Part shown: in pieces, positions 2,157-64,000 of the stretch | How the letters are laid out: each line of letters starts with the position of its first letter | How positions within the stretch are numbered: position 1 is the stretch's first letter | From: Bacteroidales bacterium | Lineage (GTDB): Bacteria > Bacteroidota > Bacteroidia > Bacteroidales > WCHB1-69 | Direction: 5' to 3' | Assembly: GCA_045600525.1 (NCBI GenBank) | Contig: JAZRYC010000010.1 | Span: 406-64,405 of the forward strand | DNA length: 64,000 nucleotides | Made by a program: the position numbers and the translations under genes | The notes under the pieces: model-generated | Told to the model about the DNA's origin: nothing | Database searches by the model: none | Seen by the model: only the letters and a program-made list of their open reading frames with translations

Positions 2157-3347
2157 ATGAAAGGAAGAGAAAGCAAACCGCACATCGGTATCTTCGGGCG
2201 ACGAAACAACGGGAAAAGCTCGCTCATCAACGCCATCACTGGACAGGAAACGGCCATTGTGGACGCACTGGCGGGAACCACCACGGACCCTGTAAAAAAA
2301 TCCATAGAGATTTTCGGCATCGGTCCTGCCATCCTGATAGACACCGCCGGCATAGACGACGAAGGAACAATTGGACAAAAACGCATCCAAAAGACCTTGG
2401 ACACACTGAAAGTCATCGACTTTGCCATCCTCGTCATCACTGATCACGAGTTCGGCGAGCCCGAACAACTGCTCCTCGGCCAATTCAACCAACTGGAGAT
2501 ACCCTATCTCATCGTCAATAACAAAGCCGACATACCCTGCACAAAACCAATCGTTGAGGGACTCAACGCTCCCACATGGGAAGTAAGTGCCTCCACCGGC
2601 CAAGGCATCCCGGAAATGCTTTCCGAATTGGTACGCCTAATGCCACCATCCGCATACATTTCCCATTCGCTCTTAGGAGGTATCATTCAGGAAAACGACA
2701 CCGTAGTATTAGTCACCCCCATCGACCAGGAAGCTCCCGAAGGCAGGCTCATACTCCCACAAGTGCAACTCATCCGCGACATTTTAGATAATAACGCCAT
2801 TGCCGTAGTACTCAAAGAAGACAAAGTCGGTGAATGGCTTCATAAGAACCCCATTCCCCGTCTAGTGGTCACCGACAGTCAAATGTTCGGACGAGTGGCT
2901 CAAGAGGTTCCTGAAGAGATCCCCCTTACTGGATTCAGCATCGTATTGGCACACCACAAAGGCGATTTCGAACACTATCTCCAAGGCACACCGCATATAG
3001 ACCAGCTACAGGATGGCGACCGCATTCTTATGTTGGAATCCTGCACGCACCTGACCTCCTGCGAGGACATCGGCCGCGGGAAACTGCCCCGCTGGATTCA
3101 GCAGCACACCGGTAAAGCACTACACTTTGACTTTGTAGCTGGCCTCAATGAAATCCCTGATATTACGAAATACGCCATGGTCATCCAGTGTGGAGGCTGC
3201 ATGATCACCCGCCGGCAAATCCTAAACCGACTGAGACCGGCCATAGAAAGTGGTATTCCCGTCTCTAACTACGGCATGGTCATTGCCTATCTCCATGGTA
3301 TTTTCAACAGGGCCGTAAAGCCTTTTCTAGAGCACACCCTTGCTTAG
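2157..3347 (+). CDS. hydF: [FeFe]-hydrogenase maturation GTPase HydF-like
   Basis: P-loop GRRNNGKSSLINAITG, then TTTDPV and DTAGIDD, NKAD. C-terminal cluster motif ESCTH...(45 aa)...QCGGC resembles the HydF CxHx46-53HCxxC motif. Confidence 0.72.
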   Translation: MKGRESKPHIGIFGRRNNGKSSLINAITGQETAIVDALAGTTTDPVKKSIEIFGIGPAILIDTAGIDDEGTIGQKRIQKTLDTLKVIDFAILVITDHEFGEPEQLLLGQFNQLEIPYLIVNNKADIPCTKPIVEGLNAPTWEVSASTGQGIPEMLSELVRLMPPSAYISHSLLGGIIQENDTVVLVTPIDQEAPEGRLILPQVQLIRDILDNNAIAVVLKEDKVGEWLHKNPIPRLVVTDSQMFGRVAQEVPEEIPLTGFSIVLAHHKGDFEHYLQGTPHIDQLQDGDRILMLESCTHLTSCEDIGRGKLPRWIQQHTGKALHFDFVAGLNEIPDITKYAMVIQCGGCMITRRQILNRLRPAIESGIPVSNYGMVIAYLHGIFNRAVKPFLEHTLA

Positions 3348-57870: not shown

Positions 57871-60816
57871 ATGATGATATCTAAACAACAATTAGCCGCA
57901 AAGTCATTCGCTGAGGAATGGAAAAATCGTGGAGACGAAAAAAGTGAAACGCAATTGTTTTGGATGTCGCTGCTACAGTATGTGTTTGGGATCGTTGAGC
58001 CGCAGAAGTTCATTGAGTTTGAAAAGCGTGTGCAGCTCACACACGTCAGCTTTATCGATGCGTACATCCCGGCTACAAAAGTACTGATTGAGCAAAAATC
58101 TTTTGATATTGATTTGCACAAAGGCTACAAGCAGAGTGACGGTTCGATACTTACGCCTTTTCAGCAGGCCAAACGCTATGCTAATGAACTGCCTTATTCG
58201 ATGCGTCCGCGTTGGGTAGTGGTAAGCAATTTTCAGTCGATTTTGGTCTATGATATGGAAAATCCGAATGGAGAGCCTTTTGAAATTCTTCTAGAAAATC
58301 TTGACAAAGAGTATTATCGGCTCTCATTTCTGACCAATACCGGAAATGCCCATCTGCAAAAGGAAATGGAGGTGAGTATCAAGGCTGGTGACTTGGTGGG
58401 TAAAATTTATGATGCGCTGCTACCGCAGTACAAGGATCCCACCAGCGCCGAAACCCTCCACAGCTTGAATATGCTCTGCGTGCGTCTGGTGTTCTGTCTG
58501 TATGCCGAAGATGCGGGCGTTTTCGGGAAACGCAGTATGTTTCACGACTATATGTCGGAATTCGATGCCCGCAATTTCCGCCGCGCGCTAATTGACTTGT
58601 TTAAAGTTTTAGACACCAAAGTTGAAGACCGAGACCCGTATATGGATGAAGCGCTATCGGCCTTCCCGTATGTGAATGGCGGTCTGTTTTCGGATTGCAA
58701 CGTCGAGATTCCGAATTTCACCGACGAACTGCGCGCGCTGATTTTGGAAAAGGCGTCCGACGATTTCGACTGGAGCGAAATCAGTCCCACCATTTTCGGT
58801 GCCGTATTCGAATCGACATTGAATCCGGTGACGCGCCGTTCGGGCGGTATGCACTATACCTCTATCGAAAACATCCATAAAGTTATCGACCCGCTGTTCT
58901 TTAATGATTTGCGCCGCGAGTTGGATGAAATAAAAGCGGAGAAAGTAGGAAAATTGCAAACGAAAAAGGCAGCGGAATTCCAGATGAAACTTTCAAAACT
59001 GAAATTTCTGGATCCTGCCTGCGGAAGTGGCAACTTTCTGACGGAGACTTACCTGTCGCTGCGCCGTTTGGAAAATGAGGCCATCCGTCTTCAGACTAAG
59101 GGACAGGTACAAATGGGTTTGGAAGAAACCAATCCGGTGAAAGTCTCCATTCATCAGTCCTATGGCATCGAAATCAACGATTTCGCGGCAGATGTCGCAA
59201 CCACCGCATTGTGGATTGCCGAGAGCCAGATGCTGAAGGAAACCTCCACCATCGTGGACTTCGATTTGGATATGCTACCGCTAAAAACCTACCACAATAT
59301 CAAGAAGGGCAACGCGTTGCGCCTGTCATGGACCGAATGGCCTATCGCTGAAAAGCGTACAGCCATCATTGCAAAGCAAACCAATGTCTATCCATTACAG
59401 GATGCACCGGTAACAACTGCCAATGAACCGACCGTTCAATACAATAATATTGATTTATACAGCGACGAAATCAATCTGCATCCCAAGCGTAAAGAGCCCG
59501 CGACATATCACGTAGATTTTGATTACATTATGGGAAATCCGCCGTTTGTTGGTGCAAGATTGATGTCGGAAAGCCAAAAGCAAGATATGTTGGAAGTCTT
59601 CGGAAAGAAGTGGAAAAACATTGGGAATATGGATTACGTTTCTGCTTGGTATTATAAAGCGGCAAAAGTTATGTTGAGTAGCGATAGTCATACGGCTTTG
59701 GTTTCCACCAACAGCATAACGCAGGGCGAGCAGGTTGCCAATCTTTGGAAACCGCTGTTTGAAAAATTCGGCATTCATATCGATTTCGCCTATCGAACTT
59801 TCCGATGGGACAGCGAATCAACATTAAAAGCGCACGTCCACTGCGTCGTAATTGGATTTTCGAGATGCGAAAGCGAAACGAAAACGATATTTACAGAGTC
59901 ATCTTCCCTTCAAGCACAAAATATTAATCCGTATCTAATTGATGCGGAAACAGTTTGGATTGAAAGTAGAAAATATCCATTATGCGATGTGCCGGAAATT
60001 GGTATAGGAAACAAACCTATTGATGGTGGCAATTATTTGTTTACAGAAGAAGAAATGCGTGCCTTCATTAAGAAGGAACCCAAATCAGAACCTTATTTCA
60101 AAAAATGGATAGGTGCAGATGAATTTATCAATGGTTGGTACCGATATTGTCTTTGGCTGGGAGATTGTTCCCCCGCAGAAATTCGTTCAATGCCAGAATG
60201 CTTCAAACGAGTTCAGGCTGTACGCGATTTCCGCTTGGCCAGCAAGAGCGAGGGAACACGTAAACTTGCCGACAAACCTACTCGCTTTCACGTAGAAAAT
60301 ATGCCAAAGGGGAATTATATTGTTATTCCAGAAACATCTTCTGAAAAAAGAAAATATACACCTATCGGCTTTTTGACACCAGATATTCTTTGTAGTAATG
60401 CAATAAGGTTAGCACCCAATGCAACCCTCTATCATTTTGGCATTCTGACTTCCAATGTCCATATGGCGTGGATGCGTGTGGTTTGCGGCCGGTTGAAATC
60501 TGATTATCGCTATTCCAAAGATATTGTATATAACAATTTTCCATGGCCTACACCGACAGACGAACAGAAGGCTAAAATTGAGCAAACGGCGCAAGCCATC
60601 CTGGATGCGCGGGCAAAATATCCGGAAAGTTCGTTGGCCGACTTGTACGATGATGTCACAATGCCACCCGAGCTGCGCAAAGCCCATAAGGAAAATGATC
60701 ATGCCGTGATGGCTGCCTACGGTTTCAATGCAACAATTCTATCCTCTAACAATGAATCTCAAATTGTTGCTGAATTATTCAGACTCTATCAAACAATAAT
60801 AGAACAAGAACAATGA
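57871..60816 (+). CDS. MmeI-family type IIL (IIG) restriction-modification enzyme, single-chain endonuclease + N6-adenine methyltransferase + specificity domain
   Basis: N-terminal PD-ExK-like motif FIDAYIP...VLIEQKS as in MmeI (D-x9-ExK). MTase motif I FLDPACGSGNFL and motif IV NPPFVG. 981 aa. No separate methyltransferase gene nearby. Confidence 0.78.
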   Translation: MMISKQQLAAKSFAEEWKNRGDEKSETQLFWMSLLQYVFGIVEPQKFIEFEKRVQLTHVSFIDAYIPATKVLIEQKSFDIDLHKGYKQSDGSILTPFQQAKRYANELPYSMRPRWVVVSNFQSILVYDMENPNGEPFEILLENLDKEYYRLSFLTNTGNAHLQKEMEVSIKAGDLVGKIYDALLPQYKDPTSAETLHSLNMLCVRLVFCLYAEDAGVFGKRSMFHDYMSEFDARNFRRALIDLFKVLDTKVEDRDPYMDEALSAFPYVNGGLFSDCNVEIPNFTDELRALILEKASDDFDWSEISPTIFGAVFESTLNPVTRRSGGMHYTSIENIHKVIDPLFFNDLRRELDEIKAEKVGKLQTKKAAEFQMKLSKLKFLDPACGSGNFLTETYLSLRRLENEAIRLQTKGQVQMGLEETNPVKVSIHQSYGIEINDFAADVATTALWIAESQMLKETSTIVDFDLDMLPLKTYHNIKKGNALRLSWTEWPIAEKRTAIIAKQTNVYPLQDAPVTTANEPTVQYNNIDLYSDEINLHPKRKEPATYHVDFDYIMGNPPFVGARLMSESQKQDMLEVFGKKWKNIGNMDYVSAWYYKAAKVMLSSDSHTALVSTNSITQGEQVANLWKPLFEKFGIHIDFAYRTFRWDSESTLKAHVHCVVIGFSRCESETKTIFTESSSLQAQNINPYLIDAETVWIESRKYPLCDVPEIGIGNKPIDGGNYLFTEEEMRAFIKKEPKSEPYFKKWIGADEFINGWYRYCLWLGDCSPAEIRSMPECFKRVQAVRDFRLASKSEGTRKLADKPTRFHVENMPKGNYIVIPETSSEKRKYTPIGFLTPDILCSNAIRLAPNATLYHFGILTSNVHMAWMRVVCGRLKSDYRYSKDIVYNNFPWPTPTDEQKAKIEQTAQAILDARAKYPESSLADLYDDVTMPPELRKAHKENDHAVMAAYGFNATILSSNNESQIVAELFRLYQTIIEQEQ

Positions 60817-60875: not shown

Positions 60876-60913
60876 TAGGGGTCAGATAGTATAGAACTTT
60901 ATCCTGAACCCTA
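60876..60913. other. imperfect hairpin TAGGGGTCAG-(18 nt)-CTGAACCCTA
   Basis: 10-bp arms with one mismatch. The left arm is identical to the first 10 nt of the array at 63721. No T-run follows. Confidence 0.5.
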
Positions 60914-60934
60914 ATCCCTAACCCCTAACCCCTA
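60907..60934 (+). repeat. telomere-like heptamer array, C-rich strand: AACCCTA ATCCCTA ACCCCTA ACCCCTA
   Basis: Four tandem 7-mers. The last base is the A of the ATG at 60934. The minus strand reads GGGG-TTA-GGGG-TTA-GGG-ATTA-GGG. Confidence 0.85.
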
Positions 60935-61587
60935 TGAAAGTAATCATCACTGGAACAACGGGCTATGTTGGCGAAGGCGTGCTGCTCTGCTGCCTCGAAC
61001 ATCCCGAAATAGAGAAAATCCTGAGTGTGTCGCGCCGCCCGACCAACATCGAACATCCCAAACTGGAAGAACTGATTGTGGATGACTTTATGAATCTGCA
61101 AACTGGTGACGCGCGCTTGGCCGGGTACGATGCGGTGTTCTTTATCGCCGGCATCACCAGCGTGGGCACACCCGAGGATGTTTATCGCAAAATCAGTCAG
61201 ACGATTCCGCTGCACTTTGCGGAAATTCTGCCCGACAAAGAGCAGATGACCTATATCTATCTGTCGGGCGAAGGCACCAACGCCAATGGGAAATTGGCAT
61301 GGCAGAAAATCAAAGGCGGCACGGAGAACGCGCTTTTCGCGATGCCCTTCAAACACGCCTTCGGGTTCAGACCCAGCATTATGCGCCCGCACCCGAAGCA
61401 GAAAACCCGCAAGTCGTTCCAGATTGCCAGCCGCATCCTATATCCGCTGATGTGGCCGCTGTGCCAGTCCAACACGATGCAGGAGGTGGCCGACGCGATG
61501 ATTTGCTGCTCGAAGTTCGGATATGAAAAACGACATATTTCCGTTCGTGATATCCGGAAGTTGTCCAGAGATTTGAAAAAGAAGTGA
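60934..61587 (+). CDS. NAD(P)H-binding (atypical SDR/epimerase-like) protein
   Basis: Rossmann motif MKVIITGTTGYVGEGVL. 217 aa. Confidence 0.68.
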   Translation: MKVIITGTTGYVGEGVLLCCLEHPEIEKILSVSRRPTNIEHPKLEELIVDDFMNLQTGDARLAGYDAVFFIAGITSVGTPEDVYRKISQTIPLHFAEILPDKEQMTYIYLSGEGTNANGKLAWQKIKGGTENALFAMPFKHAFGFRPSIMRPHPKQKTRKSFQIASRILYPLMWPLCQSNTMQEVADAMICCSKFGYEKRHISVRDIRKLSRDLKKK

Positions 61588-61607
61588 TACTTTTAAATAA
61601 AAACGCT

Positions 61608-62291
61608 ATGAACGAAGAATGTTTGATTTGCCAAGCTCCCTTGGAATATCTTAACGAAGACGTGGAGATGGAGTGTGTGCTTTGCCATAAGAAGGTGCTG
61701 TCGAAAACACGTTGTGTAAACGGGCATTTCGTATGTGACGATTGCCACACCCGCGGTTTGGCCACCGTGATAAGCATTTGCCTGAACGAAAAATCCCGAA
61801 ATCCTATAGAGGTGATGAACCGCCTGATGTCGCAACCGTTCTGCCACATGCACGGCCCTGAGCATCACGTGCTGGTCGGTTCCGCTTTGCTGACTGCCTA
61901 CAAGAATGCCGGCGGAGATATTGACCTTCCCAAAATGCTGGTGGAAATACAGAGCCGTGGCCGGCAGGTGCCCGGCGGCGTATGCGGTTTCTGGGGTGCG
62001 TGTGGCGCAGGTATCAGCAGCGGAATGTTCGTCTCCCTGATTTCCGGTGCCACGCCGCTCAGCGTGGAGCCGTGGGGGCTCGCCAACCGCATGACCTCCC
62101 AATCGCTGAATGCAATCGGCGAAATCGGCGGCGCACGCTGCTGCAAACGTGACTCTTATCTCGCTATCCTTGCCGCTATCGACTTCGTGGCGGAACATTT
62201 TGGCGTTCAAATGGAAAAATCCAACATTTTTTGTCAGTTTTCTAACAAAAATAACCAGTGCATCGGAAACAGATGCCCCTTTCATCCGTAA
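61608..62291 (+). CDS. Cys-rich protein, DUF5714-like (zinc-ribbon N-terminus)
   Basis: CLICQ...CVLCH...CVNGHFVCDDCH is a Zn-ribbon. Further Cys motifs are CGFWGACGAG and GGARCCKRD. The ORF track starts at GTG 61584, which overlaps the upstream stop; the first ATG is 61608. The family assignment is from memory. Confidence 0.45.
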   Translation: MNEECLICQAPLEYLNEDVEMECVLCHKKVLSKTRCVNGHFVCDDCHTRGLATVISICLNEKSRNPIEVMNRLMSQPFCHMHGPEHHVLVGSALLTAYKNAGGDIDLPKMLVEIQSRGRQVPGGVCGFWGACGAGISSGMFVSLISGATPLSVEPWGLANRMTSQSLNAIGEIGGARCCKRDSYLAILAAIDFVAEHFGVQMEKSNIFCQFSNKNNQCIGNRCPFHP

Positions 62292-62311: not shown

Positions 62312-63718
62312 ATGAAAAAAACAATCCTTTTTTTCGTGCTTTTAGTGATGGTCAACTTCGTGTTCGGCCAAGTTAACATTCCTGTCGGTTTTGACGAGCG
62401 TGCCGACCTGATGAGTCTCATCTTTCGGACTGCAGGGGCCAATGAGTACGGCTTCTGTTATTTTGATGAATATGTGAATAATCTGAAGCCCTATATCAAT
62501 GAAACCGACGAGGTGGTAAAGCTGGCACAGAAATACCGCGAGGAAACAGACATCTCGTATGACGCTGTGGCTGATTTCGCTCTCCATCTCAAAATTTCTG
62601 AGAATGGGAAGTTTACCTTGGATGACGCTTTCCAAGATGGCATTGACGAACGTTGGACGGAAGAACAGAAGCAGAATTTCTTGGCCGCGTTGAACGAATA
62701 TTATGCAAAATCCAATTTTCATCAGGGCTACATGAAAAATGCGGAAATCCAGCAGAAAGCGGTAGAAGCATTTAAACAGGATGTGTGTCAGAAGATTGAT
62801 TTGGAATGGTTTGACAAGTTCTTTGGAGCCAACAACAATCCTCAATTCCGCATTGTGCTGAGCATCCTGAATGGTCCCAATAACTATGGCTGCAGTGCGC
62901 AGATGAAAGATGGAAGTTTCCTGCTCTGTCCGTTTATCGGCAGCTATTCTATGGACAATTCGCAAAATCCGGTTTACAGGGTAAATGAGGTTCTGCCGAT
63001 TGTCATTCACGAATTCTGCCATGCCTATTGCAATCCGCAGATTGAGCACTTTTGGCCGGATATGGAAGGGAAATCTACGGAAGTCTATAATGCTAACGCG
63101 CTGACATTGACTCAGATGGCATACGGAGATGCCAAAACAATGATGTGTGAGACTTTTGTTCGTAGTTGCGTGATTCGCTATTTCCTGAATCACTATCCGC
63201 AGATATCCGTTGACGACCTGCTGTCGGAAGAAGCAGATTTCTACCTCACACGCACGATGGTGGAGTCTTTGGAAAAATACGAGCAGAACCGGGAACAATA
63301 TCCGACGATTGAAAGTTATATGCCGCAGTTGATCAATGACATCAACCAATTCAATCTTAAAAACTTCCTGAAAGAACAGAAAAAAGAATTAAAGGCCAAC
63401 GCGCACGTGATGAAATGTAGCATCAAAAACGGTGCGAAGAATGTCCCTTCCGGAGAAATAGAATTGAAGATTATCTTCAGCAAGCCGATGCAACAAATGA
63501 TTGCCTTGGGATATGGCAATTCTGATGGTGTTTTTTTGGAATTTGATAAAAATATTGAACATACTTTCACATGGAGCAAAGACTGTAAAACCACCACGAT
63601 TTATCTGGATTTGCAGCCGAACACGCACTACTCTTTCAGCATATTAGGAGGCTTGTACCGCACGCAGGACGGACATACCGCCGGCGAAACCCAGTTTTAC
63701 GATTTCTGGACCAAGTGA
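62312..63718 (+). CDS. secreted DUF4932-like putative metallopeptidase with a C-terminal Ig-like (SbsA/Big_5-like) domain
   Basis: Start trimmed to MKKTILFFVLLVMVNFVFGQ (signal peptide). HExxH motif HEFCHAYCNP. The C-terminal 100 aa or so are beta-rich. Confidence 0.5.
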   Translation: MKKTILFFVLLVMVNFVFGQVNIPVGFDERADLMSLIFRTAGANEYGFCYFDEYVNNLKPYINETDEVVKLAQKYREETDISYDAVADFALHLKISENGKFTLDDAFQDGIDERWTEEQKQNFLAALNEYYAKSNFHQGYMKNAEIQQKAVEAFKQDVCQKIDLEWFDKFFGANNNPQFRIVLSILNGPNNYGCSAQMKDGSFLLCPFIGSYSMDNSQNPVYRVNEVLPIVIHEFCHAYCNPQIEHFWPDMEGKSTEVYNANALTLTQMAYGDAKTMMCETFVRSCVIRYFLNHYPQISVDDLLSEEADFYLTRTMVESLEKYEQNREQYPTIESYMPQLINDINQFNLKNFLKEQKKELKANAHVMKCSIKNGAKNVPSGEIELKIIFSKPMQQMIALGYGNSDGVFLEFDKNIEHTFTWSKDCKTTTIYLDLQPNTHYSFSILGGLYRTQDGHTAGETQFYDFWTK

Positions 63719-63720
63719 TA

Positions 63721-63776
63721 TAGGGGTCAGGGTATAGGGTATAGGGTTTAGGGTATAGGGTTTAGGGTTTAGAATT
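63721..63776 (+). repeat. telomere-like heptamer array, G-rich strand: 8 x TAGGGTW (TAGGGGT CAGGGTA TAGGGTA TAGGGTT TAGGGTA TAGGGTT TAGGGTT TAGAATT)
   Basis: Starts 2 nt after the stop at 63718. There are seven G3-4 tracts separated by 3-4 nt. It is the reverse-complement motif of the array at 60907-60934. Confidence 0.9.
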
Positions 63777-63811
63777 GGAGAATGATTTTACTTGTCTAAT
63801 TAACAAAAACT

Positions 63812-64000
63812 ATGATTCAAAGTTACAAAGATTTGATTGTTTGGCAAAAGGCCATGCAGATGACTGAAATGGTATATTCTATGGTGAAAAAACTTCCGAA
63901 GGAGGAAACGTATGCATTGAGCGACCAAATGAGGCGCGCGGCTGTGTCGATTCCTTCGAACATAGCGGAAGGCTACGGGCGGAACTCAAAGAAAGAGTAT
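63812..64000 (+). CDS. four-helix-bundle protein (23S rRNA intervening-sequence protein / Avd-like family), 5' part only, truncated by the window end
   Basis: Not in the ORF track because no stop lies inside the window. My translation is MIQSYKDLIVWQKAMQMTEMVYSMVKKLPKEETYALSDQMRRAAVSIPSNIAEGYGRNSKKEY, which carries the family hallmarks (DLxVWQKA, LxxQxxRAAxSIxxNIAEG). Confidence 0.75.
   Translation, partial: MIQSYKDLIVWQKAMQMTEMVYSMVKKLPKEETYALSDQMRRAAVSIPSNIAEGYGRNSKKEY

Follow-up and report, generated by a model that had tools for sequence, protein, structure and literature searches.

A G-rich heptamer array in a Bacteroidales genome is the upstream arm of a small four-helix-bundle gene cassette

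What is a run of eight tandem TAGGGTW heptamers doing between two co-directional genes of a Bacteroidales bacterium? The run lies close to the end of the stretch of DNA analysed here (the window, 64,000 nucleotides in length, positions 406-64405 of contig C10 in assembly G000, which comprises 2.12 Mb in 180 contigs). A first-pass annotation had presented it as a plant-telomere-like array with strong G-quadruplex (G4) potential. Two puzzles meet at this spot, namely the role of the widespread four-helix-bundle (4HB) proteins of the "23S rRNA intervening sequence" (IVS) family and the question why, in many bacteria, no long simple repeat is as common as the tandem heptamer. The comparisons presented below reveal that the array forms the upstream arm of a cassette with one small gene and is not a stand-alone G4 element. 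The features of the locus are compiled in Table 1.

Table 1. Positions of the features discussed in the text; positions without a contig name refer to the window.
Feature	Position	Strand	Remark
5′ arm: TA followed by eight tandem TAGGGTW heptamers	63719-63776	+	G-rich sense strand; direct reading and TRF
A/T-rich spacer of 35 nt between arm and start codon	63777-63811	+	several differences between G000 and L036 despite the identical ORF
Cargo gene, N-terminal 63 codons; 4HB protein (TIGR02436 / PF05635 23S_rRNA_IVP / PF22296 bAvd)	63812-64000	+	
Upstream host gene, DUF4932 protein of 486 aa	62258-63718	+	stop codon is the left edge of the insertion
C-rich array CCCTAAY x3.7, inverted unit family	60909-60934	+	runs into the ATG (60934) of a 217-aa gene
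TAGGGGTCAG, same sequence as the opening 10 nt of the array starting at 63721	60876-60885	+	can pair with CTGAACCCTA at 60904-60913
Contig-end array	C127:1-25		
Contig-end array	C136:1-28		
Contig-end array	C138:2119-2148		
Contig-end array	C163:6565-6585		
Contig-end array	C164:2134-2166		
Contig-end array	C171:59-106		

Direct reading agrees with the annotation that eight units begin 2 nt behind a stop codon and end 35 nt ahead of an open reading frame. The stop codon TGA (63716-63718) is followed by TA and then, from 63721, by TAGGGGT, CAGGGTA (63728), TAGGGTA (63735), TAGGGTT (63742), TAGGGTA (63749), TAGGGTT (63756), TAGGGTT (63763) and a degenerate TAGAATT (63770-63776). TRF reports a period of 7 with 6.3 copies, 91% matches and a score of 67, and a period of 21 with a score of 87. 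The two-unit pattern TAGGGTWTAGGGTW, allowing at most two mismatches, occurs 12 times in the window versus 0.68 occurrences expected, and none of 100 shuffles reached this density, confirming that the array is not a product of chance; 11 of the 12 matches belong to this array or to the reverse-complement array at 60909-60934. The units stand head to tail without spacers, unlike the 24-48 nt repeats and unique spacers of the CRISPR class, and the array was rightly kept apart from the latter. All seven tracts of three or four Gs counted initially are present, together with a canonical G3+N1-7 motif and a G4Hunter score of 1.41. The potential to form a G4 thus holds at the level of the sequence. 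The emphasis laid on it does not, because only six of 49 arms flanking 4HB genes contain GGG or CCC, and G4 potential is therefore incidental to the arrays as a group.

The gene behind the array is cut by the end of the window, and the contig itself ends 72 nt further downstream, still inside the ORF. The fragment of 63 amino acids scored 79.5 bits with the TIGR02436 HMM (cut-off 24), and extension to the contig end raised this to 111 bits over model positions 1-76. Full-length relatives match PF05635 and PF22296, and Bacteroides thetaiotaomicron also possesses genes of the family. One of them, P0001, has 133 amino acids and is 100% identical to the cargo protein over 87 residues. Compared with a second relative (P0002) the ORF has a pN/pS of 0.10, a ratio that points to purifying selection. 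Structures have been solved for the homologues 2GSC (Xcc0516; E 1.3e-22) and 2RLD (E 1.9e-10), and the equivalog model of the diversity-generating retroelement (DGR) protein Avd, NF033474, gave 27.4 bits with a cut-off of 80. The neighbours read at the locus code for DUF4932 and GNAT proteins, and neither a reverse transcriptase nor template/variable repeats were noticed there. By eye, the spacer between arm and start codon contains no exact copy of the Bacteroidetes -7 motif TAnnTTTG. A search of the G000 assembly recovered neither a 3′ arm nor the rest of the cassette. The GNAT gene, which is the right-hand neighbour in relatives, is found from codon 17 onwards at the start of contig C37.

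The complete arrangement can be read in relatives. Since the three complete cassettes of the same genome (see below) have inverted arms, a WACCCTA array was predicted beyond the gene at the end of the window, and it was indeed present in the metagenome contig L036, whose 4HB ORF is identical to ours at 260 of 261 nt. In L036 the DUF4932 stop codon is followed by five TAGGGTW units, an ORF of 133 codons that runs into the next array, about 14 AACCCCT/AATCCCT units, a stretch of 11 nt and the ATG of a GNAT acetyltransferase gene. The contigs L037 and L038, coding for a protein with 93% identity, show four units, the ORF, 4.5 CTAAACC units and 4 nt in front of the GNAT ATG; here, the GNAT gene is the one found in L036 and the left neighbour is different. 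In the three closest species (G006, G050 and G024; DUF4932 protein 81-86% identical), DUF4932 and GNAT are separated by a gap of 9 nt with neither array nor 4HB gene. The layout in L036, L037 and L038 together with these 9-nt empty sites identifies the array as the 5′ arm of a cassette inserted where two co-directional host genes of an apparent operon meet. The 5′ arm has eight units in G000, five in L036 and four in L037/L038, and the 3′ arm has about 14 in L036 and 4.5 in L037/L038, so that the microsatellite-like variation in unit number which the first-pass annotation had proposed to look for exists among close relatives. Comparison of filled and empty junctions revealed no target-site duplication, transposase, integrase or recombinase. 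Transposons and MITEs do not provide a matching class, as there is no target duplication and each copy carries different arms.

A closer alignment of window positions 63460-64000 with positions 1-560 of L036 uncovered a sharp mosaic. Identity is 88% over the whole alignment and about 80% in the host gene (judged by eye), and arm and spacer differ by an indel of three units and several substitutions. The ORF shows no synonymous change at all; its sole difference between window and L036 concerns the start codon, where ATG is replaced by GTG. Such a pattern means either that the ORF was exchanged recently or that the metagenome contig is chimeric.

Within G000, four 4HB genes have adjacent arrays in one and the same layout. 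Three of these cassettes are complete, the one in the window being cut, and in all three the array ahead of the gene is the reverse complement of the array behind it, the units being GTGAATA, ATTATTAA and GTTTAAR; contigs C169 and C170 hold examples. To score such flanks, the 170 nt upstream of a gene were aligned with the reverse complement of the 170 nt downstream, and a Smith-Waterman score of at least 30 was taken as a pass. Among 30 genomes of the genus, 26 of 30 4HB loci passed with a median score of 40.5. Control alignments of the same 30 loci scored around 17, and passes were limited to two direct, no reversed and one complement-only alignment. At the level of the order, represented by one genome per family, 19 of 29 4HB loci passed. 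The background amounted to ten of 1527 genes in G000 (0.65%) and to eight of 326 non-4HB genes (2.5%) in 389 kb sampled from a relative rich in arrays. Hence, between two thirds and nine tenths of the family genes in the sample sit between complementary heptamer arrays at junctions of ordinary genes, and the recurrence beside homologous four-helix-bundle ORFs that had been suggested as a check was found.

Nearly all arms have a period of 7. The sequence of the unit varies from locus to locus, and within a given cassette the two arms match each other. The conserved feature is the complementarity between the upstream and downstream arrays, not the unit sequence. The 4HB paralogues of G000 are old, as reflected by identities of only 19-50%, which accounts for the differences between their arms. 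At one locus common to five species the divergence of the ORF keeps pace with that of the flanks, indicating that cassettes can be stable residents. We also considered whether the protein subfamily predicts the arm unit. The mean unit distance was 3.1-3.5 in all bins of protein identity, and a general rule of this kind was discarded. A few pairs are suggestive: near-identical units are shared by three of nine non-orthologous pairs with at least 60% protein identity versus about 2% of pairs at lower identity.

Inverted flanks were occasionally seen around other genes, and a second cargo family was considered for a DsrC-like gene, a DUF2147 gene, a CvpA gene and a DUF559 endonuclease gene. These are ordinary genes, and the idea of a second family was dropped. 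The strongest inverted flanks in G000 (score 60) surround a 143-aa ORF at C159:60661-61089 that resembles a DUF559 endonuclease by eye. They are non-tandem, and the ORF seems to represent another type of small gene enclosed by repeats. Very long inverted arrays bracket a gene for 437 amino acids in a genus relative (locus L009, G022:C1:35500-40000, arrays at 1256-1450 and 2947-3297). One side is made up of 14 copies of TTAAACCCTAAACC, the other of 34 copies of TAAGGTT followed by 17 copies of AAGTCTC. Together with the DsrC-like, DUF2147 and CvpA genes, this example indicates that ordinary genes can be enclosed as well in array-rich genomes.

Heptamer arrays are by no means restricted to 4HB genes. 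With a threshold of at least three copies TRF found 108 period-7 arrays in G000, as compared to 25, 37 and 19 arrays with periods of 6, 8 and 9. The excess of period 7 and the intergenic position of 88 of the 108 arrays are the hallmarks of the heptanucleotide SSR or STRR class. Dozens of different units occur. CAAGTTT and CAGGTTT are the commonest with 18 arrays each, followed by AAAGTTT, CATTATT, AAGGTTT and others, and arrays of the xAGGGxx type with at least three units number 11, making TAGGGTT-like repeats a minority. Across the genus, (TAGGGTT)3 was detected in 12 of 25 genomes, one of them with 126 matches, and relatives possess arrays of 17-34 units; in 16 other families of the order (TAGGGTT)3 was not found. 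Perfect (TAGGGTT)4 occurs in many unrelated bacteria, mostly Bacteroidota. Given the many units, the minority share of TAGGGTT-like arrays and the wide distribution of (TAGGGTT)4, the telomere-like sequence is nothing special, and the likeness to plant telomeres highlighted by the first-pass annotation is a coincidence affecting one unit among dozens. Nor do such arrays mark 4HB genes, as none of 80 (TAGGGTT)4 loci from diverse bacteria has one within 150 nt. The association is one-sided in G000 as well, where more than 90% of the heptamer arrays have no 4HB gene nearby.

Several other properties of the arrays deserve mention. Intergenic spacers often string together different arrays, such as AAGGGTT followed by GAAACYT; spacers with several arrays are present at C54:3180-3308, C162:16600-16760, C173:9800-9990 and C170:3461-6021, among others. 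Some units show a strand bias relative to the neighbouring genes. CAGGTTT is in sense orientation in 23 cases versus five, and in eight of ten cases the G strand of AGGGTTT-type arrays in G000 is in sense with the neighbouring genes. At six G000 contig ends (Table 1) an array of heptamers or octamers is located no more than 60 nt from the end, as compared to about 1.6 expected. Repeats of this kind seem to have broken up the assembly from short reads, and contig C10 stops within the 4HB gene. Perfect (TAGGGTT)n runs of kilobase scale were noticed in unrelated phyla, at the start of an alphaproteobacterial MAG contig (L076, 65 matches) and in an Acidobacteriaceae MAG (L124, 38 matches). They may be eukaryotic contamination with plant-type telomeres or genuine long bacterial arrays.

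The first-pass annotation had tied the array to a reverse-complement motif at 60907-60934. This motif is real according to both TRF (CCCTAAC x3.7, score 45) and the pattern search, and a 32-nt alignment with part of the L036 3′ arm gives 94% identity. We nevertheless rejected it as the functional partner of the array at 63721. In L036 and L037 an inverted partner directly follows the gene, and in L038 the array is absent upstream of the gene orthologous to the one it precedes in the window. As it is the complementarity of the flanking arrays that is conserved, the array most likely has its functional partner in the inverted array that directly follows the gene and not in the motif 2.8 kb upstream. 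The array at 60909 may stand alone, or it may be the 3′ portion of a decayed element without a gene. An "empty" palindromic element at 60876-60934 was examined as a candidate of this kind. Its 10-bp stem has an MFE of -12 kcal/mol with z = -0.11, which equals the level of shuffled sequences, and the candidate was dismissed, except as a possible decayed derivative. Two other genes of this region are worth recording. A 981-aa ORF (57871-60816, + strand) gave weak matches to N6-adenine methyltransferases of the BREX PglX and Alw26I types (E values between 6e-07 and 7e-04, scores well short of the cut-offs) and probably codes for a fused type IIL/IIG restriction-modification enzyme. A Cys-rich protein of 235 amino acids (61584-62291, + strand) matches the model of the double selenoprotein MbdU, a metal-binding protein, over about half its length (E 7.7e-40; 137 bits with a cut-off of 600) and looks like a single-module, Cys-containing relative of MbdU.

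The anatomy of a 4HB gene between mutually inverted arms is directly visible in the filled loci. As to its mode of action, we infer, with a probability of roughly 0.5, that the best explanation is a cassette whose stem is processed by RNase III in the operon transcript in an IVS-like manner. Transcription of the host operon would continue across the cassette. In the RNA, (UAGGGUW)n of the G-rich 5′ arm would pair with (WACCCUA)n of the C-rich 3′ arm to give a long stem holding the 4HB ORF in its loop. RNase III would then cut this stem, as it does in the 23S rRNA IVS of Coxiella burnetii, and thereby part the cargo RNA from the host cistrons. We propose that an insertion at an operon junction is tolerated because the cargo RNA is cut free in this way. 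Replication slippage, acting separately on each arm, might give rise to the heptamer periodicity and to the variable number of units.

Structure predictions are compatible with such a stem. The MFE structure predicted for L036 shows pairing from arm to arm, and so does the centroid structure. At least 25 long-range pairs between the flanks were found in the MFE structures of 29 of 35 cassettes (83%) versus 15 of 60 control genes (25%), and at least 12 such pairs in 37% of the control genes, as isolated RNAs of 600 nt often pair their ends. Cassettes are thus enriched, but with controls this high we did not accept long-range pairing in the MFE structure as proof. The folding energy of the entire L036 cassette is unremarkable (z = -0.22), and the arms are imperfect with 14-21% mismatches. 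An excess of G.U-type mismatches was likewise abandoned as proof of an RNA stem. Loci at which the cassette and both of its neighbours are on one strand had four G.U-type versus 22 A.C-type mismatches, pseudo-replicated counts that point in the wrong direction and lend no support to selection on the sense RNA. G000 has an RNase III gene that scored 159 bits, just under the cut-off of 166.

Judged by eye, some cassettes appear to have a promoter-like TAnnTTTG box of their own between arm and ORF, and these are antisense to their neighbours. At one conserved locus type (L048, L051, L054, L056, L058, L064, L067 and L068), inspection by eye suggests a Bacteroidetes-like promoter box (tgTAtTTTTGcaaa) between the 5′ arm and the ORF. 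Cassettes of the tgTAtTTTTGcaaa type in genus relatives lie antisense to two co-directional neighbours. With a promoter-like box of its own and an antisense orientation, the cargo gene would not depend on the stem for expression; the host transcript would nevertheless fold into it.

The inverted arrays may act on DNA rather than on RNA. By folding into hairpins or cruciforms when the DNA is single-stranded or supercoiled, they could form the mobile or recombinogenic ends of a cassette and serve insertion, excision or exchange of the 4HB gene, with RNA pairing as a by-product. We regard this as unlikely, although several observations are compatible with it: filled and empty sites with sharp boundaries in close species, the mosaic of an almost identical ORF amid diverged flanks, the different left neighbour of the cassette lineage in L037/L038, the surplus of arrays at contig ends and the contig break inside the gene. 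Moreover, the types of mismatches favour neither RNA strand convincingly, and the near-identical units of three of nine more closely related pairs are compatible with such a role, too. However, the junctions lack a transposase, an integrase and a target-site duplication, paralogues within one genome share neither arms nor much sequence, the five-species locus diverges together with its flanks as expected for vertical descent, and the mosaic could stem from a chimeric contig. Alternatively, the arrays might be operator-like sites, in RNA or DNA, bound by the pentameric 4HB protein they surround, for instance for autoregulation or for protecting or marking the junction, and the complementarity of the arms would then be secondary. 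Avd binds nucleic acid, and the matches to NF033474 and PF22296 place the cargo protein in the Avd superfamily, Avd being the DGR accessory protein. The tight association of gene family and tandem heptamers, the apparent purifying selection on the ORF and the weak link between protein similarity and arm unit are also in accordance with recognition by the protein. Such recognition seems improbable to us, since unit distance follows no trend with protein identity and the great majority of arrays, in G000 as well as at the (TAGGGTT)4 loci elsewhere, have no 4HB gene in their vicinity.

The array might also be the product of neutral slippage, in which case the inverted arrangement around 4HB genes would be a historical accident of gene arrival. 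The genome-wide excess of period 7 with dozens of mostly intergenic units, the relatives with arrays of 17-34 copies and the unequal numbers of units between arms and among relatives would all be expected then, and an excess of heptanucleotides is known from many bacteria (Mrazek 2007, as cited in PMC4679880). We nonetheless consider an absence of function quite improbable. Complementarity has been kept across proteins of 19-50% identity and across families of the order, and an enrichment of 87% versus 0.65-2.5% is not accidental. Complementarity maintained in cassette lineages this distant requires a constraint or an active homogenising process. The initial idea, in which a G4 forms in DNA or mRNA and thereby influences how transcripts end, are processed or are translated at this junction, appears very unlikely. 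It draws on the G tracts and G4Hunter score of the array, on a G-rich sense strand right after the stop codon, which is also the placement of the GGGAATC and GGGGAYT repeats (PMC4692102), and on the predominant sense orientation of AGGGTTT-type arrays in G000. On the other hand, G3 or C3 units are rare among the arms, the other cassettes of G000 cannot form a G4, and orientation is not fixed, given that the upstream arm of L041 and, on the sense strand, the array at 60909 are both C-rich. In addition, a complementary arm about 0.45 kb downstream would compete with G4 formation.

The proposed RNase III-processed stem predicts RNase III-dependent processing at operon junctions and, possibly, recognition of the repeats by the protein. 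In a broader and more speculative view, which we hold to be doubtful, the 4HB (PF05635) genes and their inverted arrays would constitute one system that colonises transcribed junctions, be they rRNA helices or operon boundaries, with a pentameric protein recognising, maintaining or spreading the arrays. If true, this would link the function of the 23S IVS proteins with the excess of heptanucleotide repeats. A practical point is that arrays and cassettes appear to break short-read assemblies, including that of G000.

Several known systems share part of this picture. The cargo protein matches both of the 4HB pentamers 2GSC and 2RLD, and it matches Avd of diversity-generating retroelements weakly, below the cut-off. 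The short tandem repeats (STRR) of cyanobacteria and the TAACTGA repeats of Beggiatoaceae, Cyanobacteria and Bacteroidetes are intergenic and located near start or stop codons, and repeats of this class are described as having no known function (MacGregor 2015, PMC4679880; Mrazek 2007). They differ from the cassette arms in being solitary arrays of one sequence; paired inverted arrays around a gene family are not described in these reports. The GGGAATC repeats of Xanthomonas and the GGGGAYT repeats of Nostoc (Rehm et al. 2015, PMC4692102) are G-rich heptamers with one tract of three or four Gs per unit, as in our array, and their form and placement match an array starting 2 nt after a stop codon. 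They are reported to form G4 structures in vitro. In contrast to G000, where TAGGGTW is a minority unit (11 xAGGGxx arrays versus 108 arrays in total), one unit dominates the genome there. Furthermore, most units of G000 cannot form a G4, and S23 is not mentioned in PMC4692102.

The closest counterpart is the IVS of 23S rRNA known from Coxiella and Leptospira (Warrier et al. 2016, PMC4990558; Ralph and McClelland 1993), with which the cassette has the protein family in common. In the literature searched, the IVS of Coxiella burnetii is the only experimentally studied object with the anatomy of the cassette: an S23p (PF05635) ORF resides in the loop of a 28-bp stem that is cut by RNase III, and the 5′ part of the stem contains tandem heptamers varying between strains (PMC4990558). 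Terminal inverted repeats that can form a long stem are present in L036 and L037/L038, the window holding the 5′ arm only; variable tandem heptamers are found in the stem, the 5′ arm having eight, five or four units; and the size of the element, about 430-560 nt, is similar. The differences concern location, processing and state of the ORF. IVSs are embedded in helix 25 or 45 of 23S rRNA, whereas the cassette lies between the protein-coding genes for DUF4932 and GNAT. Excision by RNase III has been demonstrated for the IVS and is proposed by analogy for the cassette. The Coxiella ORF appears to be decaying, whereas that of the cassette has a pN/pS of 0.10. Searchable literature naming the protein family, subscription journals not included, contained no armed cassettes between protein-coding genes, and in that literature the layout has so far been described only inside rRNA genes; its occurrence outside them is new in this sense. 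With filled and empty sites and inverted arms at ordinary gene junctions, the rRNA IVS looks like a special case within a wider class of gene-in-a-stem cassettes.
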